Source: Bacteroidales bacterium
Lineage (GTDB): Bacteria; Bacteroidota; Bacteroidia; Bacteroidales; GCA-2711565
Length of the DNA stretch: 64,000 nt
Direction of reading: 5' to 3'
Assembly: GCA_963664245.1 (NCBI GenBank)
Contig: OY760934.1
Coordinates: 165,604 to 229,603 of the forward strand
Below, one piece after another: positions 24,084 to 64,000 of this stretch. The translations under genes and the position numbers were made by a program. Under the pieces are notes generated by a model. It was not told where the DNA came from, did no database searches, and saw only the letters and a list, made by a program, of their open reading frames with translations. Within the stretch, counting starts at the first letter, position 1, and each line of letters opens with the position of its first letter.

Positions 24084-24129
24084 ACAACTTTCCTCCGGAT
24101 CGGGAAATTATAATGAACTGGAACCAATA

Positions 24130-25389: not shown

Positions 25390-25604
25390 GATGTTTGTAT
25401 ATTAAGTTTGTACTTCTTGTTTTAACCTAATGATTACAAAACATCATTCTACCCTATTGTGTTTTTTTAAAACTAAATGATTTTTATCATTTTTTTGAAA
25501 ATATTTGGTATGTGTGATTTGCAATCTATGGGATTATGCTAAATATTGAAGGGGGGTTGAACAACGTTTTTGAAGTTCACTATTACAATGGAAAGATTAT
25601 AGGC

Positions 25605-26171
25605 TCAAGAATTTATCCAATTCGAAATCATTACACTCCCCTTAACAGTGATGATAGATTCCGGATGAAACTGAAACCCTTTAATGTCAAACTTCTTGTG
25701 CCTGATTGCCATGATGGTTCCGTTTTCGTCATACGCTAAAACTTCCAGTTCGTTACTAAGGCTATGTTTGTTAACGGCCCATGAATGATATAGCCCGATG
25801 GGAGTTCGTTGTGGAACATTATTAAAAATAGTATCCTCTTTAATAATGTGCAAAAAATGTTTTTGCCCATGAAAAGGTTTGTCCAGGTTAAAAAGTTCTG
25901 ATCCGAAATGTTCAGCAATAGCCTGCAGACCCATGCAAATCCCTAAAATATTTTTTTTAGAACCGTATTCTGCCAAAATTTTTTTCATAATGGGAAAATT
26001 ATCGGGCAGAGAAGGTCCCGGCGAAAACATTATTTTGTCAAAAGAATTCACATCCTCCAGCCTTATCTCTGCATGATTATGAACCGTTACTTCAGCCGCA
26101 TTGGTTTCGTTAACCAATTGTACGAGGTTGTATGTAAACGAATCATTATTGTCGACAATCAATAATTTCAT
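25605..26171 (-). CDS. pabA: Aminodeoxychorismate/anthranilate synthase component II (glutamine amidotransferase)
   Basis: The Met at 26171 gives MKLLIVDNNDSFTYNLV. The GICMGLQA catalytic Cys motif and the HPES histidine motif define a class I GATase of the TrpG/PabA type. Confidence 0.8.
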   Translation of the reverse strand: MKLLIVDNNDSFTYNLVQLVNETNAAEVTVHNHAEIRLEDVNSFDKIMFSPGPSLPDNFPIMKKILAEYGSKKNILGICMGLQAIAEHFGSELFNLDKPFHGQKHFLHIIKEDTIFNNVPQRTPIGLYHSWAVNKHSLSNELEVLAYDENGTIMAIRHKKFDIKGFQFHPESIITVKGSVMISNWINS

Positions 26172-44530: not shown

Positions 44531-46219
44531 TTAATTGAATTTATCAGCCAGGGCTAACATTATCGAACCAAATACACGATTATTTTCGTTTTTTTCAGAA
44601 AGCACTAACTCTTTAGTTGTTACATTGCTTGTTTTGTTCTCATATTCTTCCATTTCTTCCAAACCGTGCTCTGTCATAATAAAGTATTCCTTCGACCAAT
44701 ATTTGTAGGAATAGCCCCTTCTTTTTCGGAGCATGCGGTGCCTGTCGTATTTGGGACTCATTTTTATAATGGTTCCAACAGGGATTTTAAATTCGAGTTC
44801 TACTTCCGGATCGGACCATGATATTTCATTGGGAACCCCGAAGAAAATATCAAAATCAAAAGAGTTTCCGTTTTGTTTAAAATAATAAAGAACCTCCTGC
44901 GTTTTCTGGCGGGCATCAGGCATTGATTTTCCCCTGGCCGAAACATGTTTGATTAGCTCAAATTTATCATCTTTGCTTGGCACTAAATCTAAGCGGGCTT
45001 GGTTAATATAGTAAGCATCTTTTTTGAATATAAACGTTACTTCTTCATCAAATTGAAAATAATTGCTGTAATGTAGCTTCGCTTCCCCATTTAATTTATT
45101 AACGTTAATGTTGATTTTATTTGAGTTTGGTTGTTCAATTTTGAGTTTTGCATAATCTTCTGCTTCGTAACGGAAGTTGCGTGCAATTTTTAGTCCAAGG
45201 AAAATGGTAAAAGCCAATCCAATGAGCCAGAGTACAAACATGGTGCTTCCCAGTTGTCGTATCCTTTCAAAGCCAATAATCATACGTAACCCGTGATAAA
45301 TAAGCATGATGACGGGGATAATAAACAGTAATATCAACCCGACTTTAAATAAGCCCGGATTTCCACTGGCTCCAATTATAATATCCAAAAATTGGGCAAC
45401 GGGAAATATCATGATGTCTTCATTATGAATTGATAACACCCCATCGGCAAAAAAACTTCCAAGAAATCCAATGGTAAAAGCAAAGCCAATTATCAGGAGA
45501 ATAACCCCGAATAAAATAATAAATGCTTTCCCGAAGAAACGTAAAATCCCGGATAATGCGTATCCGATATTGTCGAAAAAGTTTTTAGTATTTGGCTTGT
45601 TCTTTTTGTATGTTTTTTTTGCTTCTTCACCCAAATCACTGACTTTCTCTTTAAGGTTTTCAAATTCTTTTTTTAACGATTTTTCAATGTTTGAGATAGT
45701 TACGCGTTCTCCTTTCATTTCTAAACGTTCGGCCGTTGTTTCTGCTTCGGGAACCGCCAGCCATAATATAAGATAAATGAAAGGTCCCAGGGTTGTGAAA
45801 ATGGAAACGACGAAAATCAAGCGTACCCAAATCGGTTCGATATTAAAGTATGCAGCAATACCACTTGCAACGCCGCCAATTATTTTATCTTCCGGGTCGC
45901 GGTATAAACGTTTTGTTCTTACGTTAGCATAACTGTTGCTTTTTTCGTCCTCATCTTCGTCCGTAAATTCGCTGGGTTCGCCCATGCGCTGTATTACATC
46001 ATTGATGTCTCCAATGACAATGACCTGTTTGTTTTCATTAAGCTTGGATTGCAGGATTTCAGCAATGCGGCTTTCTATATCTGCAATGATTTCGTCCCTG
46101 CCTTCAAGGTTCTCAAAATGGCTCTTTATGCTTACCAGGTAAGCATTTAATTTATTGTACGCATCTTCATCAATGTGAAAAATGATGCCGCTTACATTTA
46201 TGGTGAGTGTTTTTTTCAT
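44531..46219 (-). CDS. PspC domain-containing membrane protein
   Basis: 562 aa. RLYRDPEDKIIGGVASGIAAYFNIEPIWVRLIFVV is the PspC motif. Several TMs and a large C-terminal domain follow. It lies 2 nt downstream of padR. Confidence 0.7.
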   Translation of the reverse strand: MKKTLTINVSGIIFHIDEDAYNKLNAYLVSIKSHFENLEGRDEIIADIESRIAEILQSKLNENKQVIVIGDINDVIQRMGEPSEFTDEDEDEKSNSYANVRTKRLYRDPEDKIIGGVASGIAAYFNIEPIWVRLIFVVSIFTTLGPFIYLILWLAVPEAETTAERLEMKGERVTISNIEKSLKKEFENLKEKVSDLGEEAKKTYKKNKPNTKNFFDNIGYALSGILRFFGKAFIILFGVILLIIGFAFTIGFLGSFFADGVLSIHNEDIMIFPVAQFLDIIIGASGNPGLFKVGLILLFIIPVIMLIYHGLRMIIGFERIRQLGSTMFVLWLIGLAFTIFLGLKIARNFRYEAEDYAKLKIEQPNSNKININVNKLNGEAKLHYSNYFQFDEEVTFIFKKDAYYINQARLDLVPSKDDKFELIKHVSARGKSMPDARQKTQEVLYYFKQNGNSFDFDIFFGVPNEISWSDPEVELEFKIPVGTIIKMSPKYDRHRMLRKRRGYSYKYWSKEYFIMTEHGLEEMEEYENKTSNVTTKELVLSEKNENNRVFGSIMLALADKFN

Positions 46220-50914: not shown

Positions 50915-52042
50915 TTAGTACTCGTTTTTCTGCCCTATTAAGGGATTTATATTTTTAAGTTGTTGTTCAAGCTTTATTTTAGCTTGTAAAAATTCATCTT
51001 TGAGTTCCTGGAATATATTTTTTACCGAAGTAATTATCTTGATTTTTCCGGCATTAGCCCCGCAAAAAGCAAACCCATCATTCATGTTGCCATGATAAGC
51101 AGCGTTTAAAGCATTTGCAATGCAATACGAAGTGGTTTTTGGGTTGCACGATCTTATACAATGAAAAGGACAAACCGCAGGGCGGCGAAGCCCAAGGTTG
51201 GTTTCGTTGAGAAAGTTGTTGAAGATGGCCCGGCCGGGCAATCCAACAGGGCTTTTTATAATCTGGATATCTCCTTTTTTTATGTCGATAAAAGCCTTTT
51301 TAAATTCAGGTGATGCATCGCATTCTTCGGTGGCTATAAAACGGGTTCCCAACTGAACTCCGGCCGCTCCTTTTTCCATGATCTGAAAAGCATCATCGCC
51401 ACTATGAATACCCCCGGCCGCAATAACCGGAATGTCTTTGTTGAACCTTTCTTTCATCCTTTTGGTTACTTCCAGTACATTGCCCAGGATGTTTTCCAAT
51501 TGATTGTTTTCATCCTGGAGCTCATTGGCTTTAAATCCAAGATGTCCTCCGGCTTTTGGTCCTTCAACGACAAAAGCGTCGGGTAAATAGTTGAAATTTT
51601 GCATCCATTTTTCGCAAATAATTGAGGCTGCCCGTGAAGACGATACAATAGGAACCAGCTTTGTTTTGATCCCTTTTCCCAAATATTTGGGGAGATCCAA
51701 GGGTAATCCTGCTCCGGCAAAGATAATATCAATCTTTTCTTCGATGGAGGTTTTTACCATGTCCGAAAAATTGGTCAGCACCGACATGATGTTGACGGCA
51801 ATAACCCCCATGCTCATTTTTCGGGCTTTTTGTATTTCCTGGCGCAGGGTTTCAATATGGTTCAAACGGATATTTATGTTTTGATTTCGGTTTGTTAACC
51901 CAATGGCTACCGTAGAAATGGTACCGATACCCCCCATATTTGCAACAGCCGATGCCAGTCCTGACAATGAAATACCAACGCCCATGCCTCCCTGAATAAT
52001 AGGAATGCGAATTTTGAGGTCGCCAATGTTAAATGATTTCAA
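50915..52042 (-). CDS. Nitronate monooxygenase / FabK-like FMN-dependent enoyl reductase family protein
   Basis: 375 aa. PIIQGGMGVGIS, VVEGPKAGGHLG and IPVIAAGGI are NMO/NPD (FabK-type TIM barrel) motifs. An unusual Cys-rich C-terminal insert (CPFHCIRSC) is present. Confidence 0.7.
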   Translation of the reverse strand: MKSFNIGDLKIRIPIIQGGMGVGISLSGLASAVANMGGIGTISTVAIGLTNRNQNINIRLNHIETLRQEIQKARKMSMGVIAVNIMSVLTNFSDMVKTSIEEKIDIIFAGAGLPLDLPKYLGKGIKTKLVPIVSSSRAASIICEKWMQNFNYLPDAFVVEGPKAGGHLGFKANELQDENNQLENILGNVLEVTKRMKERFNKDIPVIAAGGIHSGDDAFQIMEKGAAGVQLGTRFIATEECDASPEFKKAFIDIKKGDIQIIKSPVGLPGRAIFNNFLNETNLGLRRPAVCPFHCIRSCNPKTTSYCIANALNAAYHGNMNDGFAFCGANAGKIKIITSVKNIFQELKDEFLQAKIKLEQQLKNINPLIGQKNEY

Positions 52043-52290: not shown

Positions 52291-52298
52291 TATATTTG
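52291..52298 (+). promoter_or_regulatory. Candidate -7 promoter box for the beta-propeller cluster
   Basis: TATATTTG matches the Bacteroidota TAnnTTTG -7 consensus, 35 nt upstream of the ATG at 52333. I found no convincing -33 element. Confidence 0.3.
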
Positions 52299-52332: not shown

Positions 52333-53550
52333 ATGAAAAAGAATCTCTTTTTTATTGTCTCCCTGTTATTTTCAATAACCCTTTTCTCGCAAAATATAAG
52401 CCAATGGCGGGGCAAAAACCGTGATGGAAAATACCCGGATAAAAACTTGTTAAAAGAATGGCCCGCCGAAGGGCCTAAATTACTTTGGCATTTTGATGAG
52501 TTGGGTGAGGGGCATAGCTCGGTTGCTCCTTGGGAGAATTATATTTTTATTTCAGGAACCATTGATGGAAACGGCTACATTTTTAAGTTTACAGTGGATG
52601 GAAATCTGGTGTGGAAAAAATCGTACGGTAAAGAATGGGTGGAAAGCTGGCCCGGTGTGCGTTCAACGCCTCTTATTGTTGATGGACAATTGTACATGTT
52701 AACGGGCTTTGGTAAGTTGTTTTCGATGAATGCCGATGATGGAAGTATTGACTGGACTGTTCAAATCACGGATGCTTATGATGCCCCAAACATCAGGTGG
52801 GCCTTTTGTGAGAACCTTGCCGTGGATGGGGATAAACTGTTTGTTACGGCAGGTGGCAAAGAGGCAAATGTGTTAGCATTAAATAAAAACGACGGCTCGT
52901 TAATATGGAAAAGCCAGGCTTTGGGCGAAAAAAGTGCTTATGGGTCGCCCGCACTTATTACGCATAACAGACGTAAATTATTGGTGGCACATACCGAGTT
53001 TTCAGTTATCGGACTGGATGCCGGAACCGGGGAGTTTTTATGGTCGCACGAGAAGAAAAACCGATGGTCGGTTCACCCGAACACACCGCTTTATCACGAT
53101 GGACAGATATATGTTGTCAGTGGTTACGGCTCTGGCGGAAAGATCCTGAAATTAAATGAAGATGGAAGTCAGGTAACCCAAGTTTGGGAAAATATTTCGC
53201 TGGATAACCAAATGGGAGGCGTTGTTTTGTTGGATGGCTATTTATACGGTGGCGGACATAACAGCCGCAGCTTTTTTGTCCTGGACTGGAAAAGCGGTGA
53301 AGAAGTTTTTTCAACTCAGGAAATAGGTGCCGGAAATATTATTTATGCCGATGGACTGCTTTATTTTTATGATGAAAAAAAAGGCGTGGTAAACCTGATT
53401 CAACCCGCTGCCGGAAACACTAAAATAATCAGCAAATTTAAAGTGCCTTACGGATCAGCTCAACATTGGGCACATTTGGTAATTAATAATCAAAGATTAT
53501 ATGTCAGGCATGGAAATTCGTTAATGGTATATTCCATTGCAGCCGACTAA
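52333..53550 (+). CDS. Secreted PQQ-like (BamB-type) beta-propeller repeat protein, tandem paralogue 1
   Basis: 405 aa with a signal peptide (LFFIVSLLFSITLFSQ). It has the N-terminal motif SQWRGKNRDGKYPDKNLLKEWPAEGPKLLW and repeated blade signatures (DG.L.W, G.LY). The C-terminus is HLVINNQRLYVRHGNSLMVYSI. Confidence 0.8.
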   Translation: MKKNLFFIVSLLFSITLFSQNISQWRGKNRDGKYPDKNLLKEWPAEGPKLLWHFDELGEGHSSVAPWENYIFISGTIDGNGYIFKFTVDGNLVWKKSYGKEWVESWPGVRSTPLIVDGQLYMLTGFGKLFSMNADDGSIDWTVQITDAYDAPNIRWAFCENLAVDGDKLFVTAGGKEANVLALNKNDGSLIWKSQALGEKSAYGSPALITHNRRKLLVAHTEFSVIGLDAGTGEFLWSHEKKNRWSVHPNTPLYHDGQIYVVSGYGSGGKILKLNEDGSQVTQVWENISLDNQMGGVVLLDGYLYGGGHNSRSFFVLDWKSGEEVFSTQEIGAGNIIYADGLLYFYDEKKGVVNLIQPAAGNTKIISKFKVPYGSAQHWAHLVINNQRLYVRHGNSLMVYSIAAD

Positions 53551-53685
53551 TTTTATGTCTATAAATAAATATTATTACCATAAGCTTTTTTGCTGTTGGT
53601 AGATAACAGATTAACTTATTGGGTATTTCAATTAAAAAATGTTTTTTTTGCAATGCCAACAATTGAACTTAATTAAATAAATAGT

Positions 53686-54933
53686 ATGAAAAAAACAACT
53701 TTAGTAGCCATCGTGATTATGTTTGCTGCAACGATTAATGCACAGGTTATTGATGAATTTAGAGGTCTTGGAAGAACCGGTGTTTTCCCGGAAAAAAAAT
53801 TGTTGGAACAATGGCCTGCAGAAGGGCCTGAAATGCTTTGGTCAGTTGAGAAACTCCCGCAGGGGCATTCTTCCATGACCATTGCCTATAATACCATTTA
53901 CTTGACCGGCACTATTGATACCCTCGATTATGTGGTTGCACTGGATATGAACGGCAATTTGAAATGGCAAAAACCCTATGGCCGTGCCTGGAATAAATCT
54001 TTTCCCCGGAGCCGTTGTACTCCGACCATTGAAAATAAACGATTATATATTTCCAGTGGAATAGGTGATTTGGCTTGTGTGGATGCCATGAATGGTGACA
54101 TGATCTGGCAACTAAAGGCTTCCGATAAATTTGCAGGAAGCTATGGTCCTTGGGGAATTGCCGAGTCTCTCATTGTAAAAGGAGAGAAATTGTTTTTTAC
54201 TCCCGGAGGAAATGAAACCACTATGGTTGCCTTGAATAAAAATACCGGGGAAACCATCTGGAAATCGGAAAGCTTGAAAGATAATCCGTCCTACACTTCC
54301 CCCTTGTGGATTGAAGATGGCGATAAGAAACAAATTGTAAATGTTAGCCAGAATTATATTTTTGGGGTGAATCCCGATGATGGAACTATTGTTTGGAAAT
54401 TCTCATACGGTGAGTATGCAGGCCCACCATATCATTCGAACATCAATGCCAATACTCCGCTTTTTTATAAAAATGCTTTGTTTGTTACCAATGGTTACAA
54501 TCATACAAACCTCATGCTTGAGTTGGACAATGCCTGGAAAAATGTAATTCTAAAATGGAAGACTGATGACTTGGATACGCATCATGGAGGGGTAGTCAAA
54601 GTTGGGGGATATATTTACGGCTCAAACTGGATCAATAACGGGATGGGAAATTGGGTCTGTCTTGACTGGGAAACCGGAGAACTGAAATATGAAACCAAAT
54701 GGTTTAACAAAGGGCCTATTATTACTGCCGATGGAATGTTGTATTGTTACGATGAAAAATTCGGGAACATTGGAATAGCAAAGGCTACACCCGATGAATT
54801 TAAAGTCATTAGTTCAATGAAAATTACCTTGGGAGAAAAAGGGCCGTTTTGGTCGCACCCGGTAATTAAAGACGGTATTTTATATGTTCGTCACTTAGAT
54901 GCTGTTATGGCTTTTGATATTGCTGGTGAATAA
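53686..54933 (+). CDS. Secreted PQQ-like beta-propeller repeat protein, tandem paralogue 2
   Basis: 415 aa with a signal peptide. It has EFRGLGRTGVFPEKKLLEQWPAEGPEMLW and a C-terminus HPVIKDGILYVRHLDAVMAFDI. It aligns with paralogue 1 by eye. Confidence 0.8.
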   Translation: MKKTTLVAIVIMFAATINAQVIDEFRGLGRTGVFPEKKLLEQWPAEGPEMLWSVEKLPQGHSSMTIAYNTIYLTGTIDTLDYVVALDMNGNLKWQKPYGRAWNKSFPRSRCTPTIENKRLYISSGIGDLACVDAMNGDMIWQLKASDKFAGSYGPWGIAESLIVKGEKLFFTPGGNETTMVALNKNTGETIWKSESLKDNPSYTSPLWIEDGDKKQIVNVSQNYIFGVNPDDGTIVWKFSYGEYAGPPYHSNINANTPLFYKNALFVTNGYNHTNLMLELDNAWKNVILKWKTDDLDTHHGGVVKVGGYIYGSNWINNGMGNWVCLDWETGELKYETKWFNKGPIITADGMLYCYDEKFGNIGIAKATPDEFKVISSMKITLGEKGPFWSHPVIKDGILYVRHLDAVMAFDIAGE

Positions 54934-54982
54934 TTTGCTATTCGTTAATTCAAATTAACCATTTGCATATCTGATTGTTAAT

Positions 54983-55032
54983 ATAAGTAATTAGGTTAAG
55001 ATATTCGTTACTTATTAATCCTTAACCTAATT
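54983..55032 (+). promoter_or_regulatory. Nested, mutually exclusive inverted repeats immediately upstream of paralogue 3
   Basis: There is a perfect 12-bp repeat AATTAGGTTAAG (54989-55000) / CTTAACCTAATT (55021-55032). There is also a perfect 8-bp repeat ATAAGTAA (54983-54990) / TTACTTAT (55008-55015) whose loop contains the first arm of the 12-bp repeat. The ATG is at 55036. Confidence 0.4.
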
Positions 55033-55035
55033 ATC

Positions 55036-56253
55036 ATGAAAAAAACTTTTTTAGCTTTGATATTACTTTTTGTAATACATACACAGCAAATGGTTGCTCA
55101 GGACGTGAGCCAGTGGCGAGGTCCCGAACGTAACGGGTTCTTTCCCGATAAAGGCTTGTTAAAATCGTGGCCGGCCGAAGGTCCCGAACTATTATGGAGA
55201 TACGATGGCCTCGGCCTCGGATATTCTACTGTAGCCATTGCAAATAATCAAATTTATACGGCTGGAACCATCGATAGTATAAATTATATTTTTTCCTTTA
55301 ATTTTGATGGTAGACTGAATTGGAAGAAAAAACTCGGCTCCGGATGGATGGTGAATTATCCGGGGGTTCGTGCCACCCCCGTTATATACAAAGGATTAGG
55401 GTATTTGAGAAATGGATTTGGCGTAGTCTATTGTTTTGATGCTAGTAACGGGAATATTGTTTGGGAGAAAGATGTAGATAAAGAATTTGATGGGAAATAT
55501 TGCACTTTTGGTGTTTCAGAAAGTGTTATTGTTGACGAAAATTACTTGTATTGTGTTCCCGGCGGTAAGGACGCTAATCTGCTGGCTTTGGACAGAAAAA
55601 CCGGTGATTTCGTTTGGAAATCGTCTGGGAACGGAGAACCCAATACGTACTCATCTCCGGTATTATTTGAAAGAGGCGGAAATAAATATATTGCCGTACT
55701 TACCACTTCTTCTCTTTTTGCGGTGAATACCCAAAACGGTGAATTAGCCTGGAAACATGATCTTGGATCAAAACAATGCTCAAATACGCCAATTTATAAA
55801 GATGGAATTATTTATGTTTCATTGAGCGAAAAGGGCATTGCCTTAAAGTTGAACGAAGATGGTTCAGTTTATCACCCTCTTTGGGAAAATAATGATTTCA
55901 TGATTTTTCAGGGAGATGCTGTTCTGGTTGGTGAAAGACTTTACGCGCATACTGGCAAGTATCGGACCTTACGTTGTATCAACTGGAAAACGGGAAAAGA
56001 AATTTTTTCTGAAAAATTGGACCCAAAATTCCAAATTGCTTCTTTGGTTTTTGCCGACAACAGGCTTTATTGGTATTCTTATCTCGGGAACATGAGATTA
56101 TTTTCGGTTGATAATAACAAATTTGTACAAAAAGGATCGTTTGATTTACCCGTTGAATTAAAAAATCATTGCTCTTATATGGTGATCCATGATGGGAAAC
56201 TGTTTGTGAGGTATCAAGATACCTTATTGGTTTATAATATTTCTAACAATTAA
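55036..56253 (+). CDS. Secreted PQQ-like beta-propeller repeat protein, tandem paralogue 3
   Basis: 405 aa with a signal peptide. It has SQWRGPERNGFFPDKGLLKSWPAEGPELLW and a C-terminus MVIHDGKLFVRYQDTLLVYNI. Confidence 0.8.
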   Translation: MKKTFLALILLFVIHTQQMVAQDVSQWRGPERNGFFPDKGLLKSWPAEGPELLWRYDGLGLGYSTVAIANNQIYTAGTIDSINYIFSFNFDGRLNWKKKLGSGWMVNYPGVRATPVIYKGLGYLRNGFGVVYCFDASNGNIVWEKDVDKEFDGKYCTFGVSESVIVDENYLYCVPGGKDANLLALDRKTGDFVWKSSGNGEPNTYSSPVLFERGGNKYIAVLTTSSLFAVNTQNGELAWKHDLGSKQCSNTPIYKDGIIYVSLSEKGIALKLNEDGSVYHPLWENNDFMIFQGDAVLVGERLYAHTGKYRTLRCINWKTGKEIFSEKLDPKFQIASLVFADNRLYWYSYLGNMRLFSVDNNKFVQKGSFDLPVELKNHCSYMVIHDGKLFVRYQDTLLVYNISNN

Positions 56254-56265
56254 AAGCATATAGTC

Positions 56266-57492
56266 ATGAAAAAAGTAATTTTTGCAATATTTATTCTGGC
56301 TATATTCCTTGTTTCCTGTAACCATCAGAATATAGAGATTGCCCAGTGGGGAGGTTTGGATCGTAGTAGTTTTTATCCCGATAAAGACCTTTTGGATAAG
56401 TGGAAAGAAGGTGGGCCGGATTTAATCTGGAAATACGACAGCTTGGGCTGTGGATATGCCTCGGCGGCAGTGCTTTCCGATAAGGTAATTACAATTGCAA
56501 CTACTGATAGCATTAGCTATGTAGTAGCTTTTGACCATAAAGGAAGTGTCCTTTATAAAGAAAAATTGGGCCGGGAGTGGATGGCGAATTTCCCGGGAAA
56601 CCGATCTACGCCAATTATTTATGATGGCTTTGGCTATTTTCAGGGAAGCCTTGGGGTGCTTTATTGTTTTAATGCCGATAATGGCAAAGTCGTTTGGTCA
56701 AAAGATTTGTTTAAAGACTTTGATGGCGTAAACAACCATTATGGAATAACGGAAAATTTTGTAATCGACGGCGAAAAAATATTTGCTACCCCGGGAGGAG
56801 TGAAAAATAATATCATTGCCTTGAATCGTTTTAACGGTGATTTGATTTGGAGTATTAGCGCGAACAAAGAAGAAAGTGCTTATGGTGCGCCTAATATTAT
56901 TGAAGTAGAGAGTCAAAAATATTTGATAATTTTTACAAAGGGGAGTTTGTTTTCAATTAATCCTGAAACAGGAGAGATTTTTTGGAGCATGCTTTTAGAA
57001 GGAAAATCGACCAAAGCGATTACCCCAATTTATAAAAACGGATACCTATACGTAGGTGCCGGTTATAAAAATGGGTACATGAAATTGAAAATAGCTGAAG
57101 ATGGGCATTCTGTTAAAACAATTTGGGTAAATAAGGATATTACGAACGGCATGAATGGCGGTTTTATTTACGGTAACAAACTGTATGCTGGAACCGGTGG
57201 GCATCCTGCAAAAATGTTTTGCTCAATTGATCTGAACACGGGGAAGATTGTGGATTCTTTAAAAATGAATCCGCCAATGACAACTATTGGGGCTGATGGA
57301 AAAGCATACGTTTATTTGTTTCGATCGGGCGAAATAAAATTGATTGATCTGGAGAATGGCTTGAAAATAGTTGGTAGCTTACACATTCCAGGAGGAATTG
57401 AAAATGAACACTGCTCACATCCGGTAATTCATGATGGAAGATTATATGTTCGTCACGATAATAATTTGTTTGTCTACAATATTAAAGAATAG
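56266..57492 (+). CDS. PQQ-like beta-propeller repeat lipoprotein, tandem paralogue 4
   Basis: 408 aa with a lipobox (FLVSCNH). It has AQWGGLDRSSFYPDKDLLDKWKEGGPDLIW and a C-terminus HPVIHDGRLYVRHDNNLFVYNI. It begins 12 nt after paralogue 3. Confidence 0.8.
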   Translation: MKKVIFAIFILAIFLVSCNHQNIEIAQWGGLDRSSFYPDKDLLDKWKEGGPDLIWKYDSLGCGYASAAVLSDKVITIATTDSISYVVAFDHKGSVLYKEKLGREWMANFPGNRSTPIIYDGFGYFQGSLGVLYCFNADNGKVVWSKDLFKDFDGVNNHYGITENFVIDGEKIFATPGGVKNNIIALNRFNGDLIWSISANKEESAYGAPNIIEVESQKYLIIFTKGSLFSINPETGEIFWSMLLEGKSTKAITPIYKNGYLYVGAGYKNGYMKLKIAEDGHSVKTIWVNKDITNGMNGGFIYGNKLYAGTGGHPAKMFCSIDLNTGKIVDSLKMNPPMTTIGADGKAYVYLFRSGEIKLIDLENGLKIVGSLHIPGGIENEHCSHPVIHDGRLYVRHDNNLFVYNIKE

Positions 57493-57558
57493 TTTTAAGC
57501 ATTTTGTAAATTAGAGCTTTATTAAGAAAAACAGATTTTTTTTAGAGAAGTTGGAAAA

Positions 57559-58986
57559 ATGATACAGAGCCGAAAAGAATTAATGCTTGTTGTTTTGGGT
57601 GTTTTTATTGCGCTCAGCATACTTTTTTACTGGTTGGCATACAATCCTGTGACTGATCTGTCAGTGAGTTTGCCCGGAATGGATAACCGCCCCGAAGGCG
57701 GTGTTGCCGACGGGGAAGTGGTTACTATAGGAGCCAGCTTTATGAAATATGCCGATCATTCTTCCTGGCTTACCGGAAAATGGACCCGTTTCCGCGGGGC
57801 TGATTTTGATAATATCAATAAAGAAAACATTCCGCTGATTGATAACTGGAGCGGAGGTCCGAAAATTCTTTGGGAACACGATCTTGGAGAAGGTCATGCG
57901 GCTCCGGTAATTTATAACGGCAAAGTATATCTGCTCGATTATATTGAGAACCGGCGAACCGATGCTCTGCGTTGCTTTTCGCTGGAAACCGGCGAAGAAT
58001 TATGGAGCCGCTGGTATTTGGTAAAAATCAAGCGTAACCACGGCATGTCGCGTACAATTCCGGCCATCACAGATAAATATCTGGTGACCATAGGTCCGCG
58101 TTGCCATGTAATGTGCGTAAATCCCGAAAACGGGGATATGCTTTGGGGTATCGATATGGTAAAAGAATACGGCACTGAAGTGCCTTTCTGGTATACCGGC
58201 CAATGCCCGTTGATCGTTGATGATGTGGCCATCCTCGCCCCGGGAGGTTCTTCCCTGATTATTGGCGTGGATTGTGCCACTGGTAAAGTGCTTTGGGAAA
58301 CGCCCAATCCCGATAATTGGCAAATGTCGCACTCTTCCATCATGCCAATGACATACAACGGAAAGAAAATGTACATTTACATGGCCGTTGGAGGCATTGT
58401 TGGCATTTCTGCCGAAGGCGAAGATGTTGGCAAAATTTTATGGAAAACCACCGATTTTAACCCGAATGTTTTGGCCTCTTCGCCGCTTGTGTTGGACAAT
58501 GGGAAGTTTTATGTGACGGCTGGTTATGGAGCCGGAGCAGCCGTTTTTCAGCTCCAGGAAAATGCAGGGAACTATGCGGTTAAATTACTTGATAAATATA
58601 AACCTAAAGATGGGATTGCTTCCGAGCAACAAACCCCTATTTATTACAAAGGAAAAGTATTTGGGATTTTGCCCAAAGATGCCGCAGGAAACCGCAATCA
58701 ACTGGTTTGTGTTGATCCTGCAAATTTTCAGGAATTTGTGTGGACAAGCGGGAAAACGCATCGTTTCGGATTGGGACCATACGTTGTTGCCGACGACAAG
58801 TTCTTTATTTTAAATGATGATGGAACACTGACCATCGCCAAAGTAAACTTGAACCAGTTCGAGTTTTTGGATGAATACCGAATTACCGAGGGACACGATG
58901 CTTGGGGGCCGCTTGCCATTGCCGATGGTTACCTACTGATGAGAGATTCGAAAAAAATGGTGTGTCTAAATATAAAAGCCGACTAA
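57559..58986 (+). CDS. Membrane-anchored PQQ-like beta-propeller repeat protein (single N-terminal TM)
   Basis: 475 aa with an N-terminal anchor (LMLVVLGVFIALSILFYWLAY). It has WTRFRGADFDN...GGPKILW and blade motifs (GEELW, GDMLW, GKVLW, GKILW). The C-terminus is LAIADGYLLMRDSKKMVCLNI. Confidence 0.8.
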   Translation: MIQSRKELMLVVLGVFIALSILFYWLAYNPVTDLSVSLPGMDNRPEGGVADGEVVTIGASFMKYADHSSWLTGKWTRFRGADFDNINKENIPLIDNWSGGPKILWEHDLGEGHAAPVIYNGKVYLLDYIENRRTDALRCFSLETGEELWSRWYLVKIKRNHGMSRTIPAITDKYLVTIGPRCHVMCVNPENGDMLWGIDMVKEYGTEVPFWYTGQCPLIVDDVAILAPGGSSLIIGVDCATGKVLWETPNPDNWQMSHSSIMPMTYNGKKMYIYMAVGGIVGISAEGEDVGKILWKTTDFNPNVLASSPLVLDNGKFYVTAGYGAGAAVFQLQENAGNYAVKLLDKYKPKDGIASEQQTPIYYKGKVFGILPKDAAGNRNQLVCVDPANFQEFVWTSGKTHRFGLGPYVVADDKFFILNDDGTLTIAKVNLNQFEFLDEYRITEGHDAWGPLAIADGYLLMRDSKKMVCLNIKAD

Positions 58987-58990
58987 ACCG

Positions 58991-59980
58991 ATGAAAAACA
59001 AAGGAATTCTTATACTAATGATCGCCTTACTCCTGATAATTGTCGGGTTTATGGCAAGGGATTTATTTTTCGCGCCACAGGCAGAACCGAAAAATCCCTA
59101 TGAATACAATGTCGATCAGTTTAAAAAGGCTGATTCAGCATTGCTTTGTTATCGGGAAGTTGAACAGATTCAACCTAAAACGGAGATTCTTAATGCCATC
59201 GCTATTGATAAAAACGATCGTCTTTATGTATCCGGTAAAGAAAAGCTTTTTGTTTATGATGCAAATTTTCAGTTAGTTCATTTTTTTGAAACAGATAGTC
59301 AGATAAACGATCATATCAAATTTTCTGAAGATATTTATTGCATCAGTATTTCTGAGGATGGAACCATCTACCTCGGAATGGTTGATCATATTGAGGTTTA
59401 TTCCGCATCTGGCGGGAAAATTGCATCCTGGGAAAGTCGCGGGGAAGGAGCCATTTTTACCTCCATTGCACAAACGGAGACTTCGGTTTTTGTAGCTGAT
59501 GCCGGGAACAAAATCGTATATCATTATAACCATAAGGGGGATTTACTTAATACGATTGACGGGAAAAATCCGGACAATCCAAAAGGCTTTATTATCCCCA
59601 GTGCTTATTTCGATTTGTTGATAGGACGAAACGATGAGCTTTGGATCGTCAATCCTGGTTTGCACCAACTGGGAATGTATCGTCCGAATGGGGAATTGAT
59701 TTCTTCTTGGGGAGAAACATCCATGCGTTGGGAAGGTTTTTGCGGATGTTGTAACCCTTCGCATATTGCCATGCTTTCGGACGGTTCTTTCGTAACTTCC
59801 GAAAAAGGAATAGAAAGGGTTAAAATTTACCACCCCGATGGCGAGTTTAAATGCGTGGTGGCTGCACCCGACGATTTTATTGATGGTACACGCGATTTGG
59901 ATTTGTCCGTGGATTCAAAAGACAGGATTTATGTGATGGATAAAGAAAAAGGTTTAATCAGGATATTTGACAAAAAATAA
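58991..59980 (+). CDS. Membrane-anchored six-bladed NHL-repeat beta-propeller protein with a CGCC motif
   Basis: 329 aa with an N-terminal TM (ILILMIALLLIIVGFM). Six NHL-like units are visible (e.g. AIAIDKNDRLYVSG, ISISEDGTIYLG, VFVADAGNKIVYHYN, DELWIVNPGLHQLGMY, IAMLSDGSFVTSEKGIERVKIY, LSVDSKDRIYVMDKEKGLIRIF). The motif WEGFCGCCNPSH lies in blade 5. It begins 4 nt after the previous gene. Confidence 0.7.
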   Translation: MKNKGILILMIALLLIIVGFMARDLFFAPQAEPKNPYEYNVDQFKKADSALLCYREVEQIQPKTEILNAIAIDKNDRLYVSGKEKLFVYDANFQLVHFFETDSQINDHIKFSEDIYCISISEDGTIYLGMVDHIEVYSASGGKIASWESRGEGAIFTSIAQTETSVFVADAGNKIVYHYNHKGDLLNTIDGKNPDNPKGFIIPSAYFDLLIGRNDELWIVNPGLHQLGMYRPNGELISSWGETSMRWEGFCGCCNPSHIAMLSDGSFVTSEKGIERVKIYHPDGEFKCVVAAPDDFIDGTRDLDLSVDSKDRIYVMDKEKGLIRIFDKK

Positions 59981-59983
59981 AAG

Positions 59984-60184
59984 ATGGATAGAAAAGAATT
60001 TTTTAGAACTATCGGGCGAGGGGTTTTGTTTGCTGCTTTAATTGGTGGTGGGATATATTTGATGACAAGACCTAAGAAAACGGATGAATGTGAGCTTGAT
60101 TTTGTTTGTAAAAAATGCAACAAGTTGGACAAGTGTCGCTTGCCAGAAGCAAAAAAATATAAAGAAACAGAAAAGCTGAGGTGA
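59984..60184 (+). CDS. 66-aa micro-protein with Tat-like N-terminus, one TM and a C-terminal Cys4 motif
   Basis: It reads MDRKEFFRTIGRGVLFAALIGGGIYLM (an R-K variant of the S/T-R-R-x-F-L-K Tat motif), then ECELDFVCKKCNKLDKC (C-x6-C-x2-C-x5-C). The gaps are 3 nt to the upstream gene and 1 nt to the downstream gene. Confidence 0.55.
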   Translation: MDRKEFFRTIGRGVLFAALIGGGIYLMTRPKKTDECELDFVCKKCNKLDKCRLPEAKKYKETEKLR

Positions 60185-60185
60185 T

Positions 60186-60764
60186 ATGTCGGATCAGGAA
60201 AAGAAAAAAAATGTCGACCGCAGGGAGTTCATCAACACCGGGCTTCGGTTTTCGCTAGCCATTGGTATTGGTGGGCTGGCTCTCTCATTGGCTAAAAATG
60301 CCATCGGCGAAGAAATGGTTTGGCAGTTGGATGCGGCTAAATGTGTGCAATGTGGGCGGTGTGCCGATCATTGTGTATTACAGGTTTCTGCTGTGAAATG
60401 TATGCACGTTTACGATATGTGCGGTTATTGCGATTTATGCGGGGGGTATTATCGCCCGGAAGCCAGGGATCGCTCCACGGCCGCTGAAAATCAACTTTGT
60501 CCAACGGCTGCTATTGAGCGTAAATTCATCGAAGAACCTTTCTTTGAGTATCACATCAACGAAGATTTATGCATAGGCTGTGGGAAATGTGTAAAAGGTT
60601 GCGGGGCTTTCGGAAACGGGTCCATGCAATTGCAGGTTAATCACAGCATTTGCGTGAATTGCAACGAATGTTCTATTGCCCGTGTTTGTCCGGCAGATGC
60701 TTTTACCCGCGTGCCGGCCAGCAACCCTTATTTATTTAAAGGATTTGATTCATCAAAAAAATAG
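60186..60764 (+). CDS. Tat-signal periplasmic poly-ferredoxin (NapG / MauM / NosG-like, up to four 4Fe-4S motifs)
   Basis: 192 aa with a twin-arginine signal (VDRREFINTGLRFSLAIGIGGLALSLA). The Cys motifs are CVQCGRCADHC, CGYCDLCGG...LCP, CIGCGKCVKGC and CVNCNECSIARVCP. Confidence 0.75.
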   Translation: MSDQEKKKNVDRREFINTGLRFSLAIGIGGLALSLAKNAIGEEMVWQLDAAKCVQCGRCADHCVLQVSAVKCMHVYDMCGYCDLCGGYYRPEARDRSTAAENQLCPTAAIERKFIEEPFFEYHINEDLCIGCGKCVKGCGAFGNGSMQLQVNHSICVNCNECSIARVCPADAFTRVPASNPYLFKGFDSSKK

Positions 60765-60772
60765 TTCGCCGA

Positions 60773-62059
60773 ATGAAAAAGAAAATTCTAATACTTTTAA
60801 TGATCGTCATTAGCGGACTACAATTTGTTGAGCTGCAGGCTCAGCAAAGGTTTCCTAAGCCCGAGTTCGAATCGGGTCATACCCAGCCACCAACCATTAC
60901 CCCCGAGCCGCGCTCAACCACTATGGAATATGTGGATATATTTTTGCTCTTGGCTTCACTTTCATTGGTTACTTGGTTGGTGTTAAAAAAGCGTTCAAGA
61001 ATAAGCGTGTTTTGGGTGTCGGTTTTTGCGTTGGTTTATTTTGGCTTTATCAGGGAAGGCTGTGTCTGCTCGGTCGGTTCGTTGCAAAATATTGTATTGG
61101 CTCTTTTTAACCCCAATTACCAAATCCCGGTTTCGGTTATAGTGTTCTTTGCCCTGCCCTTGATTTTCTCATTGTTTTACGGACGGGTCTTTTGTGCTGC
61201 TGTTTGTCCTTTGGGAGCTATCCAGGATTTCTTCTTGATCCGCCCGGTAAGTATGAAAAAATGGTTGCAGTCGGTGCTTGGCTTGATCCCCTATATCTAT
61301 TTAGGATTAGCCATTTTATATGCGGCAACATCCACCGATTTTATTATTTGCCGTTACGATCCCTTTGTCGGGATTTTTAGGTTCAATGCTACCTTTATGA
61401 TGTATGTAATTGGTGGAGCTATACTGTTGATTTCTATGTTTGTTGGCAGGCCTTATTGCCGGTTTTTGTGTCCTTACGGTGTCCTGTTGAACCTCACCAG
61501 CCGCTTGTCGAAAAAGCATTTAAGCATTACACCAACCGAATGTATTCAGTGTCGTTTATGCGAAAATTCCTGTCCGTTCGGAGCCATTGATAAGCCCGTT
61601 GAAGCCAGAAAAGTAGAAGACCGTAGAAAAATTGTTAGACGATATTCGTGGATGGTGTTGCTGCTTCCCGTGCTGATGTTTATCGGCGGGTGGACGTTTG
61701 CCAGTTTCCACGAAACCCTGGCAAAAGTAAACCCTAAAGTTGAACTGGCCGGCTTGATTTTGGAAAATCCCGAGGTTCTTACCAAAGACATGAGCGAAGA
61801 TATTGATGCTTTCCGTGACTCCGGGAAAACCAAAGAACAACTGTTTACTGAGGCCGCTACCATTGTGAGCGATTTTTATAAAGGTTCGTGGTTGTTGGGT
61901 GGATTTCTTGGGCTGGTATTTGGCTTGACCCTCATGAAATTGACGATTGTAAGGTATCGAACCGATTACACCCCGAATAAAGGAGGCTGTTTTAGTTGTG
62001 CCCGTTGTGTAGACTATTGCCCGGTAGAAAAGGTGGATCATATTAGAATTGAAAAATAA
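60773..62059 (+). CDS. Polytopic membrane FeS protein (NapH / MauN / NosH-NosR C-terminal family)
   Basis: 428 aa with multiple TMs. It has two CX3CP motifs (GRVFCAAVCPLGAIQDF; GRPYCRFLCPYGVLLNL) and two ferredoxin motifs (CIQCRLCENSCP; CFSCARCVDYCP). About 130 aa containing two further TMs separate the ferredoxin motifs. Confidence 0.75.
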   Translation: MKKKILILLMIVISGLQFVELQAQQRFPKPEFESGHTQPPTITPEPRSTTMEYVDIFLLLASLSLVTWLVLKKRSRISVFWVSVFALVYFGFIREGCVCSVGSLQNIVLALFNPNYQIPVSVIVFFALPLIFSLFYGRVFCAAVCPLGAIQDFFLIRPVSMKKWLQSVLGLIPYIYLGLAILYAATSTDFIICRYDPFVGIFRFNATFMMYVIGGAILLISMFVGRPYCRFLCPYGVLLNLTSRLSKKHLSITPTECIQCRLCENSCPFGAIDKPVEARKVEDRRKIVRRYSWMVLLLPVLMFIGGWTFASFHETLAKVNPKVELAGLILENPEVLTKDMSEDIDAFRDSGKTKEQLFTEAATIVSDFYKGSWLLGGFLGLVFGLTLMKLTIVRYRTDYTPNKGGCFSCARCVDYCPVEKVDHIRIEK

Positions 62060-63930
62060 TGAGTTCAGAAATGAAGAATAAAAATATAAGACTTTGGAGA
62101 TGGGTAGCGGTTATTTCAGGCGCATTTACCATTTTAATTTGCTTTTTGTTGATGGCAACGTATTTTCAGTTGAACCGTTTGAATCCGGTTGAAACGGAAG
62201 CCATCAATACTTTGGTTCAGCGCTTAAGCGAAAACCCGGATGACGAAGCCTTGAGAAACGAAATCAGGTCGTTGGATTTGTTGGTTCGCAAAGCTTATTT
62301 TACGAACCAATGGCAGGTGAAAATCGGTGGTTATATCGCATTTATCAGCCTGGCCATTATGCTGATCGCCATCCAAATAATTTCCCAGTCAAAGCCTGTT
62401 GATCCTAAACTGGAAGAATTGGAAGATACCGACGATTTGCTGTTCAAAAAACGCTCCCGCAAGTGGATTTCCATCGGAGGCGTTTCAATAGTGTTGATCG
62501 CTTTGGTGTTGGCTTTTCTGACCCATGAAAAACTGGAAGCCAAATTTATCCGGGCAGCCATTGCCGAAGTAAATGAGCTTGAGGTTAAGACCGAGGTCGA
62601 GAATAAGCTTGAAAAAGAAGTGGTGAAAAATATGGAACAAGATACAGTTGCCCCTGATAATACCCCGGACGCTAAAACAGATGAAAAAGAAATTGTAAAA
62701 GAGACAAATCCTGCTAAACCTAAACCTAAATCTCAATCTCAAAAAAAAGAAACTCTCAGGGTATCTACTGCCAGCTACATGGAAAAAATGAAGAGTCAGT
62801 TCCCAACATTCAGAGGTGCTGGCGGCTTGGGGATCGCTTACCAAAAAAACATTCCCACTCAATGGGATGGGGCAAATAATCAAAACATAAAATGGAAAGT
62901 TAAGATTGATTATAAAGGCTACAATTCGCCGATTATATGGGACGATAAATTATTCCTGACCGGGGCGGATGCCAGCAAAAAAGAAGTTTTCTGTTACAAT
63001 AAAAATACCGGGGCTTTGCTTTGGTCAAAAGAAATTACAGGTATCCCAAATTCTCCGGAAGCTCCTGCCGTAACCGACGATACCGGGCATGCAGCACCAA
63101 CAGCTGCAACCGATGGCGAACGGGTTTATGCCATTTTTTCAAACGGAGATATTGTTGCCCTTGATATGAACGGGAAGATGGTGTGGGGCAATAACCTCGG
63201 TCTGCCACGCAACCATTACGGACATTCATCTTCATTATACACTTACGAGGATAAACTGATTGTGCAATACGACCAGGGAAACGCGGCGAAAATCTTGGCT
63301 CTGTCAACCAAAGATGGTTCTCAAATCTGGAGCACTCCGCGCCAGGTAAAAATATCCTGGGCATCGCCGGTTCTGATTGAAAGAAACGGGACGGTTGAGG
63401 TTGTTTTAAGTGCCGATCCTTTTGTTTGTGGCTACGATGTGGACACCGGTAAAGAATTGTGGAGCATCAAGTGCATGATGGGGGAGGTTGGCCCTTCTGT
63501 GGCTTATGAAAATGGGCTGGTGTTTGCCGTAAACGAATATGCCAGTTTGGTGGCTATTTCCGGTGGGAACACTCCCGAAATTCTCTGGGAAAGTTATGAT
63601 TACCTTTCAGATGTGCCAAGCCCGATTGCATACCACGATCTGTTGTTCTTGCCAACCAGTTACGGCGTGGTCGTTTGCCATAATGCCAAAACCGGAGAGA
63701 TTATTTGGGAACACGAATTCCCGGACGGATTTTATTCTTCCCCCATTTTGGTTAATGGGTTGATTTATCTGCCCGACATGAGTGGGAACATCCAGATATT
63801 TAAAGCCGAAAACAAATTTGAACTGGTGGCAAGCTGTCCTTTGGGAGAACGAATGGTTACTACCCCGGCTTTTGCCGACGGGCAAATATTCCTCCGTAGT
63901 GAAGAACATTTATGGTGTATTGGAAAATAA
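62059..63930 (+). CDS. Triple-TM-anchored PQQ-like beta-propeller repeat protein with a charged low-complexity linker
   Basis: 623 aa. The start overlaps the previous stop by 1 nt (TAATG). It has three TMs in the first ~165 aa and a Lys/Glu/Pro-rich linker (KTDEKEIVKETNPAKPKPKSQSQKKE). The propeller follows FPTFRGAGGLG, with blade motifs GALLW, GKMVW, GSQIW, GKELW, PEILW and GEIIW. Confidence 0.8.
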   Translation: MSSEMKNKNIRLWRWVAVISGAFTILICFLLMATYFQLNRLNPVETEAINTLVQRLSENPDDEALRNEIRSLDLLVRKAYFTNQWQVKIGGYIAFISLAIMLIAIQIISQSKPVDPKLEELEDTDDLLFKKRSRKWISIGGVSIVLIALVLAFLTHEKLEAKFIRAAIAEVNELEVKTEVENKLEKEVVKNMEQDTVAPDNTPDAKTDEKEIVKETNPAKPKPKSQSQKKETLRVSTASYMEKMKSQFPTFRGAGGLGIAYQKNIPTQWDGANNQNIKWKVKIDYKGYNSPIIWDDKLFLTGADASKKEVFCYNKNTGALLWSKEITGIPNSPEAPAVTDDTGHAAPTAATDGERVYAIFSNGDIVALDMNGKMVWGNNLGLPRNHYGHSSSLYTYEDKLIVQYDQGNAAKILALSTKDGSQIWSTPRQVKISWASPVLIERNGTVEVVLSADPFVCGYDVDTGKELWSIKCMMGEVGPSVAYENGLVFAVNEYASLVAISGGNTPEILWESYDYLSDVPSPIAYHDLLFLPTSYGVVVCHNAKTGEIIWEHEFPDGFYSSPILVNGLIYLPDMSGNIQIFKAENKFELVASCPLGERMVTTPAFADGQIFLRSEEHLWCIGK

Positions 63931-63945
63931 GAATTGAAGTACGGA

Positions 63946-64000
63946 ATGATTGATATAATAAATCGGATAATAGAACAACACGGGAAGTCGGTAGAGAAGG
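63946..64000 (+). CDS. Possible 5' end of a further cluster gene running off the window
   Basis: The ATG at 63946, 15 nt after the previous stop, opens MIDIINRIIEQHGKSVEK with no stop before the window edge. Only 18 codons are visible and the identity is unknown. Confidence 0.25.
   Translation, partial: MIDIINRIIEQHGKSVEK

Follow-up and report, generated by a model that had tools for sequence, protein, structure and literature searches.

What kind of system is served by the NapG- and NapH-like iron–sulfur (FeS) proteins that are encoded among a series of propeller genes, with no familiar catalytic subunit beside them, at the end of a 64,000-nucleotide stretch of Bacteroidales DNA (contig OY760934.1 of assembly GCA_963664245.1, positions 165,604 to 229,603; the whole stretch is termed the window here)? 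A preliminary description of the window had regarded the locus, ten co-directional open reading frames (ORFs) on the + strand at 52333-63930, as a quinone-linked electron-transfer module for a family of periplasmic propeller proteins. The comparisons presented below indicate that these ten genes open a conserved operon of roughly 15 genes, and that, as far as sequence and gene order can tell, the locus belongs to an envelope redox operon that is uncharacterised, strongly conserved and present in more than one phylum. The whole operon would form a haem- and molybdopterin-free transmembrane conduit leading from NADH and ferredoxin to an ensemble of propeller and NHL proteins, a reading that was given an even chance of being right. 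The preliminary description was partly supported, being correct in its general lines, mistaken about the quinone link and incomplete as the window ends inside the operon.

The ORF list of the window reproduced the ten ORFs with their coordinates and with spacings of 135, 102, 12, 66, 4, 3, 1 and 8 nt, followed by a 1-nt overlap, as had been described. The genes were labelled A(n)-B-C-D-E-F-G in the window and H-I-J-K-L-M downstream, where A stands for the variable propellers of about 405 aa, B for a propeller with a transmembrane (TM) segment, C for an NHL protein, D for a small peptide, E for a ferredoxin with a twin-arginine translocation (Tat) signal, F for the NapH-like protein, G for a propeller with three TM segments, H for a NuoEF fusion, I for an FeS flavoprotein, J for a further propeller, K for a GT4 glycosyltransferase, L for an ATP-binding cassette (ABC) ATPase and M for an FtsX/MacB permease. 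The Pfam assignments agreed with the families named earlier, as six ORFs matched PQQ_2 (E 1e-14 to 1e-25), C gave a weak NHL match, E matched Fer4 and F matched Fer4_5 (E 6.7e-18).

One genome per species was scanned with an alignment of F orthologues as query, and a relative was detected in at least 553 species. Gene order was counted in the best 80 species, all of them Bacteroidota, after the ORFs had been labelled by BLASTP against reference proteins, and only loci long enough to judge entered each count. The adjacency B-C-(D)-E-F was observed in 68/69 loci, F-G in 73/75, G-H in 59/60, H-I in 57/59, I-J in 50/53 and J-K in 31/49, with at least one A gene ahead of B in 62/64. Unbiased clustering of the leftover ORFs placed a LolD-like ATPase directly downstream in 29 loci and an FtsX/MacB permease in at least 22, the latter count being a lower bound set by the flank limit. 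With one order of genes shared by about 80 species, chance can be dismissed as an explanation of the arrangement. The carriers include Marinifilum, Labilibaculum, Ancylomarina, Draconibacterium, Maribellus, Sunxiuqinia, Mariniphaga, Gaoshiqia and Perlabentimonas, as well as metagenome-assembled genomes labelled Lentimicrobiaceae, Rikenellaceae, Prolixibacteraceae, Cytophagales, Cyclobacteriaceae and Saprospiraceae. The cluster can also split, since one locus retains only an A-B-C-E-F set headed by a squalene–hopene-cyclase-like (SHC-like) gene (L013) and another only A-E-F-G-H-I-J (L052), with E-F common to both. In Marinifilum fragile an inserted PDDEXK_3 gene separates F from G (L003, 11589-11966), and Marinifilum loci harbor an additional A-type propeller gene after the ABC ATPase gene.

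The continuation of the operon was read in three relatives that proceed with H, I and J, namely the locus L001, whose F protein is identical to that of the window and whose other proteins are 90–100% identical, and those of Labilibaculum euxinus and Marinifilum fragile, both with about 63% identity in F. The eleventh ORF of the window, which starts at 63946, translates to MIDIINRIIEQHGKSVEK, identical to the N-terminus of H in L001. The statement that no catalytic subunit is encoded consequently holds inside the window and fails at its edge, as this ORF is the start of a NuoE-NuoF flavoprotein. H (779 aa) comprises a NuoE-type 2Fe-2S domain, an extra 2Fe-2S domain, the flavin mononucleotide (FMN) domain of NuoF, an NADH_4Fe-4S domain and a C-terminal 2x[4Fe-4S] domain, and corresponds to a BfuC-BfuB fusion of the Bfu family (HydABC, NfnABC/StnABC) with all the extra cluster domains. 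Its residues 175-777 align to residues 7-593 of NfnB (9n5u_B), the best match in the PDB (E 1.8e-201); its full-length matches also include StnB-like chains and, among the next best, chains deposited as HydB of [FeFe]/[NiFe] hydrogenases (1e-173 to 1e-197), and its residues 1-150 are NuoE-like. These matches cover the N-terminal 2Fe-2S and C-terminal 2x[4Fe-4S] domains, which respiratory NuoF lacks. On its sequence H belongs to the BfuBC core as defined for the family, with bifurcation itself being predicted.

I is a protein of 517 aa in L001 with Fer2_4, Fer4_20 and a flavin adenine dinucleotide (FAD) Rossmann domain. It aligns to residues 4-287 and then 441-670 of Bfu A subunits (StnA-like/NfnA chains), matching their N-terminal 2Fe-2S, 4Fe-4S and FAD part and their later FeS part, and lacks both the NADPH-binding Rossmann domain of the GltD-like module and the C-terminal formate-dehydrogenase-like half. 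It thereby departs from Nfn-Bfu/Stn, which are defined by an NADP(H)-binding Rossmann domain, and because this domain has been lost the H-I pair cannot be an ordinary Nfn/Stn transhydrogenase. Further differences from the Bfu family are the fusion of BfuC with BfuB and the apparent third partner, which is a NapH-like membrane protein. The published account of the family predicts membrane-bound types only with Mbh and Nuo modules and holds no NapH-linked type (Schut et al. 2022, PMC9304861).

The FeS proteins E and F are comparable in design to the described pairs NapG/NapH, NosG/NosH and MauM/MauN. E contains 16–17 Cys, enough for four [4Fe-4S] clusters, of which 16 are conserved, and R12, R13 and F15 of its RRxF signal are invariant in 79 sequences; like NapG it combines this Tat signal with four cluster motifs and is encoded adjacent to its NapH-like partner. 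Both E and D carry a twin-arginine motif before a hydrophobic stretch, as Tat substrates do, and are predicted to be exported. The two CX3CP and two CX2CX2CX3CP motifs of F are invariant in 29 orthologues and align with the two CX3CP and two C-terminal 4Fe-4S motifs of Escherichia coli NapH. Hydropathy assigned to F a signal peptide and seven hydrophobic or TM segments, and an outside N-terminus would place the CX3CP and the 4Fe-4S motifs, two of each, in the cytoplasm, as in NapH. On the other hand, F has 24% identity to NapH and scores 47.0 bits against TIGR02163 (cutoff 213) and 43.6 bits against NF007013 (cutoff 234), while E scores 20.6 bits against TIGR00397 (cutoff 178.85) and gives weak local matches to E. 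coli NapG (BLASTP E 4e-4). F also differs from NapH by its signal peptide, a conserved periplasmic N-terminal peptide, an additional TM segment, the splitting of its ferredoxin domain by a TM-loop-TM hairpin, and the family-specific residues C97-x-C99 and C193, which are predicted by hydropathy in two periplasmic loops and are not matched by Cys in E. coli NapH. Three of four high-GC homologues have a Cys aligned with each of the 15 Cys of F, the fourth (L087) having Glu at C257.

The partners set the pair further apart, as they are propellers and a Bfu module here, unlike those of NapGH, NosGH and MauMN. Neither napA, nosZ nor mauAB was detected in the window, in 8–10 kb of downstream sequence from relatives or among about 88 related loci. 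The earlier judgement that the combination matches no described system was upheld, the locus is not a nap, nos, nrf or mau locus, and no known terminal enzyme appeared beyond position 64000, where the genes would make up the input module instead. No publication describing the gene combination was found in a literature search that did not extend to subscription journals; a hopanoid-transport preprint was unrelated to the operon, and a 2026 PQQ (pyrroloquinoline quinone) preprint deals with six-bladed Ln-PQQ enzymes.

Outside the Bacteroidota, a B profile was run against 1.84 billion representative proteins and yielded 706 hits at E ≤1e-30, with more than 150 clusters below 1e-64. Several of these are gene fusions. 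Five representative B-NHL fusions retain the CCNP...V-T-x-E-K signature of C (P0370, P0386, P0395, P0402 and P0434), P0391 joins a BlaR1/M56 membrane domain to a G-type and a B-type propeller, and P0364 joins an SHC-like domain and a TM segment to B; one member of the P0395 cluster is named Planctomycetota (P0518). The loci of these proteins (61–73% GC) carry the same core, and with fused genes in square brackets and I' for the equivalent of I their arrangements are as follows: L-M-[B-C]-E-[F-G], without Bfu genes, in L084 and L085; redoxin, propeller, FGE-like, [B-C]-E-F-G-H-I'-K-J-L in L086; [B-C]-E-F-H-I' in L087; A, ferredoxin, radical SAM, DUF116-polyprenyl synthase, prenyltransferase-like, [SHC-like-B]-C-D-E-F in L088; and radical SAM, DUF116-polyprenyl synthase, prenyltransferase-like, J-K-L-M-B-C-D-E-F-G-H-I in L090. 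Ahead of the core, genes for MopE-Cu-binding/NosD-like beta-helix proteins were observed in L084 (1447-6029), and genes for an AhpC/TSA redoxin, another propeller and an FGE-sulfatase-like (SenA/EgtB-like) protein in L086 (2291-5498).

The F-G fusion of L084/L085 has three TM segments between the cytoplasmic C-terminus of F and the propeller, matching the topologies predicted separately for the two proteins. In L087 the NuoEF fusion (947 aa, 7773-10616) begins with an N-terminal TM-loop-TM hairpin, and the NapH-like protein (340 aa) is without the hairpin that splits the ferredoxin domain in the window F, so that a membrane element has apparently moved between the partners. The equivalent of I in L086 and L087 would be a pure FeS wire because its FAD domain is absent. 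Together the fusions and the L087 anchor connect B with C and F with G, place the Bfu module at the membrane beside F, and argue for a physical complex. The proposal that the FeS pair and the propellers belong together was borne out by these fusions in other phyla and by the B-C-(D)-E-F and F-G adjacencies.

These observations bear directly on where the electrons come from. The preliminary description had connected F and E to the quinone pool, and in its strongest form this would make them a NapGH-like quinol dehydrogenase that draws on menaquinone to feed the propellers, next to a Bfu enzyme that works separately in the cytoplasm. Membership of F in the NapH/Fer4_5 superfamily with both CX3CP motifs kept, the NapG-like design of E and the core without Bfu genes in L084 would agree with this; against it stand the near-constant G-H and H-I adjacencies in Bacteroidota, which extend to three of the five high-GC loci, the loss from I of the NADPH domain or of the whole FAD domain, which leaves no normal Nfn, and the membrane anchor of the Bfu subunit in L087. 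No quinol-binding feature was identified either, nothing ties F to quinol, and the quinol version is considered rather unlikely. The likelier electron source is H-I, the cytoplasmic Bfu-type NADH/ferredoxin pair of FeS flavoproteins whose conserved genes follow directly downstream.

Differential conservation patterns were observed for the propellers at the receiving end. The export devices previously assigned agree with sequence and hydropathy, with signal peptides in A1-A3, the lipobox LVSC in A4, one TM segment in B and three in G. The N-terminal propeller motif that had been ascribed to all six is present in five, G having FRG without GP-x-LL-W. The A family ranges from one to seven copies per Bacteroidota locus, two being the commonest; its copies are conserved only at structural Gly and Trp positions, and its nearest relative is B (hhalign E 6e-54). 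B was modelled by AlphaFold as an eight-bladed propeller behind an N-terminal TM helix (predicted local distance difference test score, pLDDT, 86.4). A Foldseek search of this model against the PDB returned BamB, tetrathionate hydrolase and PQQ dehydrogenases with TM-scores of 0.5–0.6, a generic fold likeness, and a profile search against the PDB gave marginal matches to quinoprotein ethanol dehydrogenase (4e-5) and tetrathionate hydrolase (4e-4). Within Bacteroidota the polar motifs GEGH, DYxE, KRNHGxSRTxPA, PxWYTGQCP and MSHSS of B are invariant, as are TAGYGAG, SEQQTP, PKD, RFGLGP and RD, and in our reading of the model they lie in the D-A and B-C loops, which would form the top face. The top face is the usual ligand-binding side in propeller enzymes. 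Across phyla R138, C139, R165, P168, W211, Q215, P217, H258, S260, G326, R462 and C469 are invariant. Only two or three His of B are conserved. The conserved Cys of the C-strands of B were rejected as ligands, as they occupy the buried Ala/Cys position of the repeat, and C216 is not conserved outside Bacteroidota, which speaks against a ligand role. G is homologous to B (hhalign probability 99.6%) and exhibits invariant loops of its own, namely NHYGHSSSL, QYD, GEVGPS, NEYA and TSYG, distinct from those of B.

The six propellers of the window differ from BamB (24.7–70 bits against TIGR03300, cutoff 285), only A4 having a lipobox, and from the PQQ-dependent dehydrogenases (19–52 bits against TIGR03075, cutoff 480), whose PDB hits are about 570 aa long as compared with about 380 aa for the mature propellers. 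B and G are also distinguished from BamB, PQQ dehydrogenases and tetrathionate hydrolase by their own invariant loop motifs, their TM anchors and their FeS partners; tetrathionate hydrolase serves as a precedent only, as an example of enzyme activity in a propeller of this fold that has no cofactor.

The AlphaFold model of C has a six-bladed NHL fold (pLDDT 86.5), and its nearest structures in the PDB by Foldseek are the NHL domains of TRIM2, Thin and Brat. Invariant across phyla are C253-C254-N255-P256, with a vicinal Cys pair, E271-K272, R276 and K278. An FGE-type C-x-P-x-R site in the CCNP motif was rejected, position +4 being H, S or N and never R. The vicinal pair, together with the redoxin gene of L086, would fit thiol-based chemistry, and the basic, His-rich pocket of B would fit an anionic ligand. 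As B, C and G keep invariant polar and pocket residues, while the A copies keep structural residues alone, the three look like active components rather than scaffolds. Peptide D gave no Pfam or NCBIfam match. Its description as a Tat-like Cys4 peptide held for the Cys spacing, CX5CX2CX5C being found in 58/60 orthologues, and for the twin-arginine position with a qualification, RR occurring in 38/60 and RK in 16/60, including the window D. Only R3, F6 and the four Cys are invariant, D is missing from 3/5 high-GC loci, and a suggested analogy with MauA found no footing, given the absence of a family match and an invariant set confined to the Cys and the Tat motif.

The rear genes of the operon widen the comparison. 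J, which in L001 is a 370-aa propeller with a signal peptide, is the seventh propeller of the operon. K is a GT4 glycosyltransferase, L is an ABC ATPase that reaches 238 bits with the LolD model (cutoff 308), and M (1063–1111 aa) is a duplicated, ADOP-like permease with MacB_PCD and FtsX domains. L-M, which lie outside the window, resemble the MacB/LolCDE/DevCA-type (type VII) ABC transporters, and no gene for a membrane-fusion protein or TolC was seen near them. J, K and L-M are a co-inherited sub-module. In L001 the LolD-like gene appears to be in short fragments, which suggests a pseudogene or indel errors of long-read assembly, and a 259-aa ORF without family follows the GT4 gene (18184-20800, about 8 kb past the window end). 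Terpenoid-type genes were observed beside the operon in 8 of about 88 loci (L044, L048, L080, L088, L090, L013, L069 and L033); the set consists of a DUF116 and polyprenyl-diphosphate synthase fusion, an SHC-like/prenyltransferase-repeat protein, a SPASM-type radical SAM protein and a small cytoplasmic 2x[4Fe-4S] protein, none of which has a homologue in the 64-kb window by tblastn.

In its logic this parts list most resembles the nos cluster, whose single operon likewise groups a periplasmic propeller with an ABC transporter and with a NapH-like FeS protein for electron supply, although the nos-specific proteins are absent. By analogy, the FeS chain and the transporter might build, or keep reduced, a centre in B and/or G, with catalytic electrons and substrates coming from elsewhere. 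Such a maturation or maintenance role, rather improbable in our estimation, could appeal to the parallel parts, including the periplasmic ferredoxin, to the MopE-Cu-binding/NosD-like genes upstream in L084 and to the His, Arg, Gln and Ser residues that are conserved at the top face of B. It is opposed by the lack of a His-rich or Cys-rich metal motif in the propellers, of NosZ and of a CuA/CuZ ligand pattern, by the few conserved His of B, by a transporter of MacB/LolCDE type and not of NosFY type, by the absence of NosD- and NosL-like genes from the 80 Bacteroidota loci, and by the score of 33.7 bits against the NosR/NirI model NF046105 (cutoff 1000), with no FMN_bind match.

The conduit from NADH and ferredoxin to the propellers would then operate in the following manner. 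H, with its FMN and NADH site, and I would take electrons from NADH and reduced ferredoxin in the cytoplasm and pass them to the two cytoplasmic [4Fe-4S] clusters of F. F would move them across the membrane by way of the four CX3CP Cys on the inner side and the three family-specific Cys on the outer side, and the Tat-exported four-cluster protein E would accept them, with the Cys4 peptide D where present. The end point would be the membrane-anchored periplasmic ensemble of B, C and G, which would reduce an envelope or periplasmic substrate, and the A propellers, four in the window, may be variable accessory or adaptor copies. From sequence we infer that electrons pass at each of these steps, which way they flow, and that B, C and G are catalytic. 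No haem c motif (C-x2-4-CH) was detected in any of the ten products, in agreement with the earlier reading by eye for CxxCH.

Several observations weigh against this conduit. The downstream genes were read from the 97%-identical relative L001 and not from the window's own contig; the topologies are hydropathy predictions throughout; B, C and G showed no recognisable cofactor or metal site, and the structure searches returned only generic propeller matches. A hydrophobic 19-residue segment separates the two parts in 2/5 of the B-NHL fusions (P0386/P0395 type) and, if it spans the membrane, B and the NHL domain would lie on different sides of it. One high-GC locus, L084, lacks the Bfu genes, so that Bfu is frequent and not obligatory, and F may have another donor, such as quinol or ferredoxin.

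The direction of flow is a separate issue. The simultaneous reduction of NAD+ and ferredoxin requires a donor at about -400 mV or below, such as H2, formate, CO or phosphite. No hydrogenase, molybdopterin/tungsten or Ni/Fe catalytic subunit is encoded in the locus, and outward flow is preferred on these thermodynamic grounds. The opposite course, in which B, C and G would oxidise a low-potential periplasmic donor and E and F would pass the electrons to H-I for bifurcation to NAD+ and ferredoxin, accords with the reversibility by design of Bfu enzymes (PMC9304861), and sequence fixes no direction, yet the demand for such a donor makes it quite improbable. Least credible, and hardly to be expected, is an envelope-biogenesis scaffold in which BamB-like propellers, a LolCDE-like transporter and the GT4 enzyme take part in outer-membrane or lipoprotein assembly beside unrelated redox genes. 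In its favour are the BamB-like names given to the propellers by Pfam and NCBIfam, the likeness of L and M to LolD and LolCE, and the lipobox of the lipoprotein A4. Against it, the BamB equivalog models give 25–70 bits against cutoffs of 285–423, the F-G and B-NHL fusions and the cross-phylum synteny tie the propellers to the FeS proteins, and top-face pockets are conserved in B and G but not in the A copies.

A more specific form of the outward conduit is possible but was held with clearly less confidence. It would be a third, undescribed membrane-bound Bfu (electron-confurcating) complex, in which low-potential electrons leave via the NapH-like protein, and B, C and G carry out new reductive chemistry on an envelope component, perhaps an isoprenoid-derived glycolipid on which the co-inherited GT4 enzyme and MacB-type transporter act, or on an external sink of fermenting Bacteroidota and Planctomycetota, for example Fe(III)/Mn(IV) in Labilibaculum. 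As a lead only, J-K-L-M and the terpenoid-type neighbours suggest a lipid-linked or glycosylated envelope molecule. Labilibaculum, a genus carrying the operon, includes strains that reduce Fe(III), and one strain that reduces Mn(IV), during fermentation by an unexplained route (PMC5760507); this metal reduction is compatible with an electron-sink role and is not evidence for it.

The coordinates of the features in the window are collected in Table 1. The Bacteroidota -7 promoter consensus is TAnnTTTG, and a match to it lies ahead of the first gene. A sigma-70 promoter scan of the locus gave hits no better than shuffles, and a terminator scan gave hits only inside genes. Neither the locus nor seven related loci gave an Rfam match, whether to a riboswitch or to another RNA family, and there is consequently no hint of a cofactor from RNA. 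The GC content of the locus rises to 0.42–0.44 in the FeS genes, with a strongly positive GC skew (0.11–0.21); elsewhere in the window it is about 0.38, with dips to 0.28 at 8001-10000 and 0.32–0.34 at 22001-26000. None of the five other large genes of the window was conserved beside the operon in other genera.

Table 1. Features of the propeller/FeS locus and other large genes in the 64,000-nucleotide window.
Feature	Position	Strand	Description	Basis
Promoter-like element	52291..52298	+	TATATTTG, match to the Bacteroidota -7 consensus	about 35 nt 5' of the first ATG; weak evidence
A1	52333..53550	+	405-aa signal-peptide PQQ_2 propeller, variable accessory paralogue	ORF list, Pfam
A2	53686..54933	+	415-aa signal-peptide PQQ_2 propeller, 35% identity to A1	ORF list, Pfam
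A3	55036..56253	+	405-aa signal-peptide PQQ_2 propeller	ORF list, Pfam
A4	56266..57492	+	408-aa PQQ_2 propeller, lipobox LVSC	ORF list, Pfam, sequence reading
B	57559..58986	+	475-aa eight-bladed propeller, N-terminal TM anchor, core component	AlphaFold, conservation
C	58991..59980	+	329-aa six-bladed NHL propeller, N-terminal TM anchor, core component	Pfam, AlphaFold, conservation
D	59984..60184	+	66-aa peptide with Tat-like R-[RK]-x-F, hydrophobic stretch, basic patch and CX5CX2CX5C	
E	60186..60764	+	192-aa Tat-signal ferredoxin	Pfam, NCBIfam, conservation
F	60773..62059	+	428-aa NapH-like membrane FeS protein	Pfam, hydropathy, alignments
G	62059..63930	+	623-aa protein with 3 TM, conserved periplasmic loop, charged linker and eight-bladed propeller, core component	
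H (start)	63946..64000	+	first 18 codons, runs past the window end	translation MIDIINRIIEQHGKSVEK
DUF5916/CBM9 gene	2860..5286	-	808-aa protein	
TonB-dependent receptor gene	38194..40530	-		
E1-dehydrogenase/transketolase-like gene	41097..43520	-	807-aa fused protein	
PspC-domain gene	44531..46219	-	562-aa protein	
NMO/FabK-like gene	50915..52042	-	divergent from the operon	

The operon would combine known kinds, a Bfu enzyme with a NapH-type membrane output, and there is a real chance that the terminal propeller/NHL chemistry is new. If the proposed conduit is true, fermenting Bacteroidota of sediments and their relatives would move electrons of NADH and ferredoxin across the inner membrane by a dedicated path without cytochromes, quinone-dependent complexes or molybdoenzymes, the Bfu enzyme family would gain a new class of output, and a role would be given to three propeller/NHL families now labelled "BamB family" or "hypothetical". 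The gene fusions and invariant residues offer direct handles for mutagenesis, and where cultured Marinilabiliales (Labilibaculum, Marinifilum and Draconibacterium among them) have electron-sink phenotypes that are unexplained, the operon supplies a concrete candidate.

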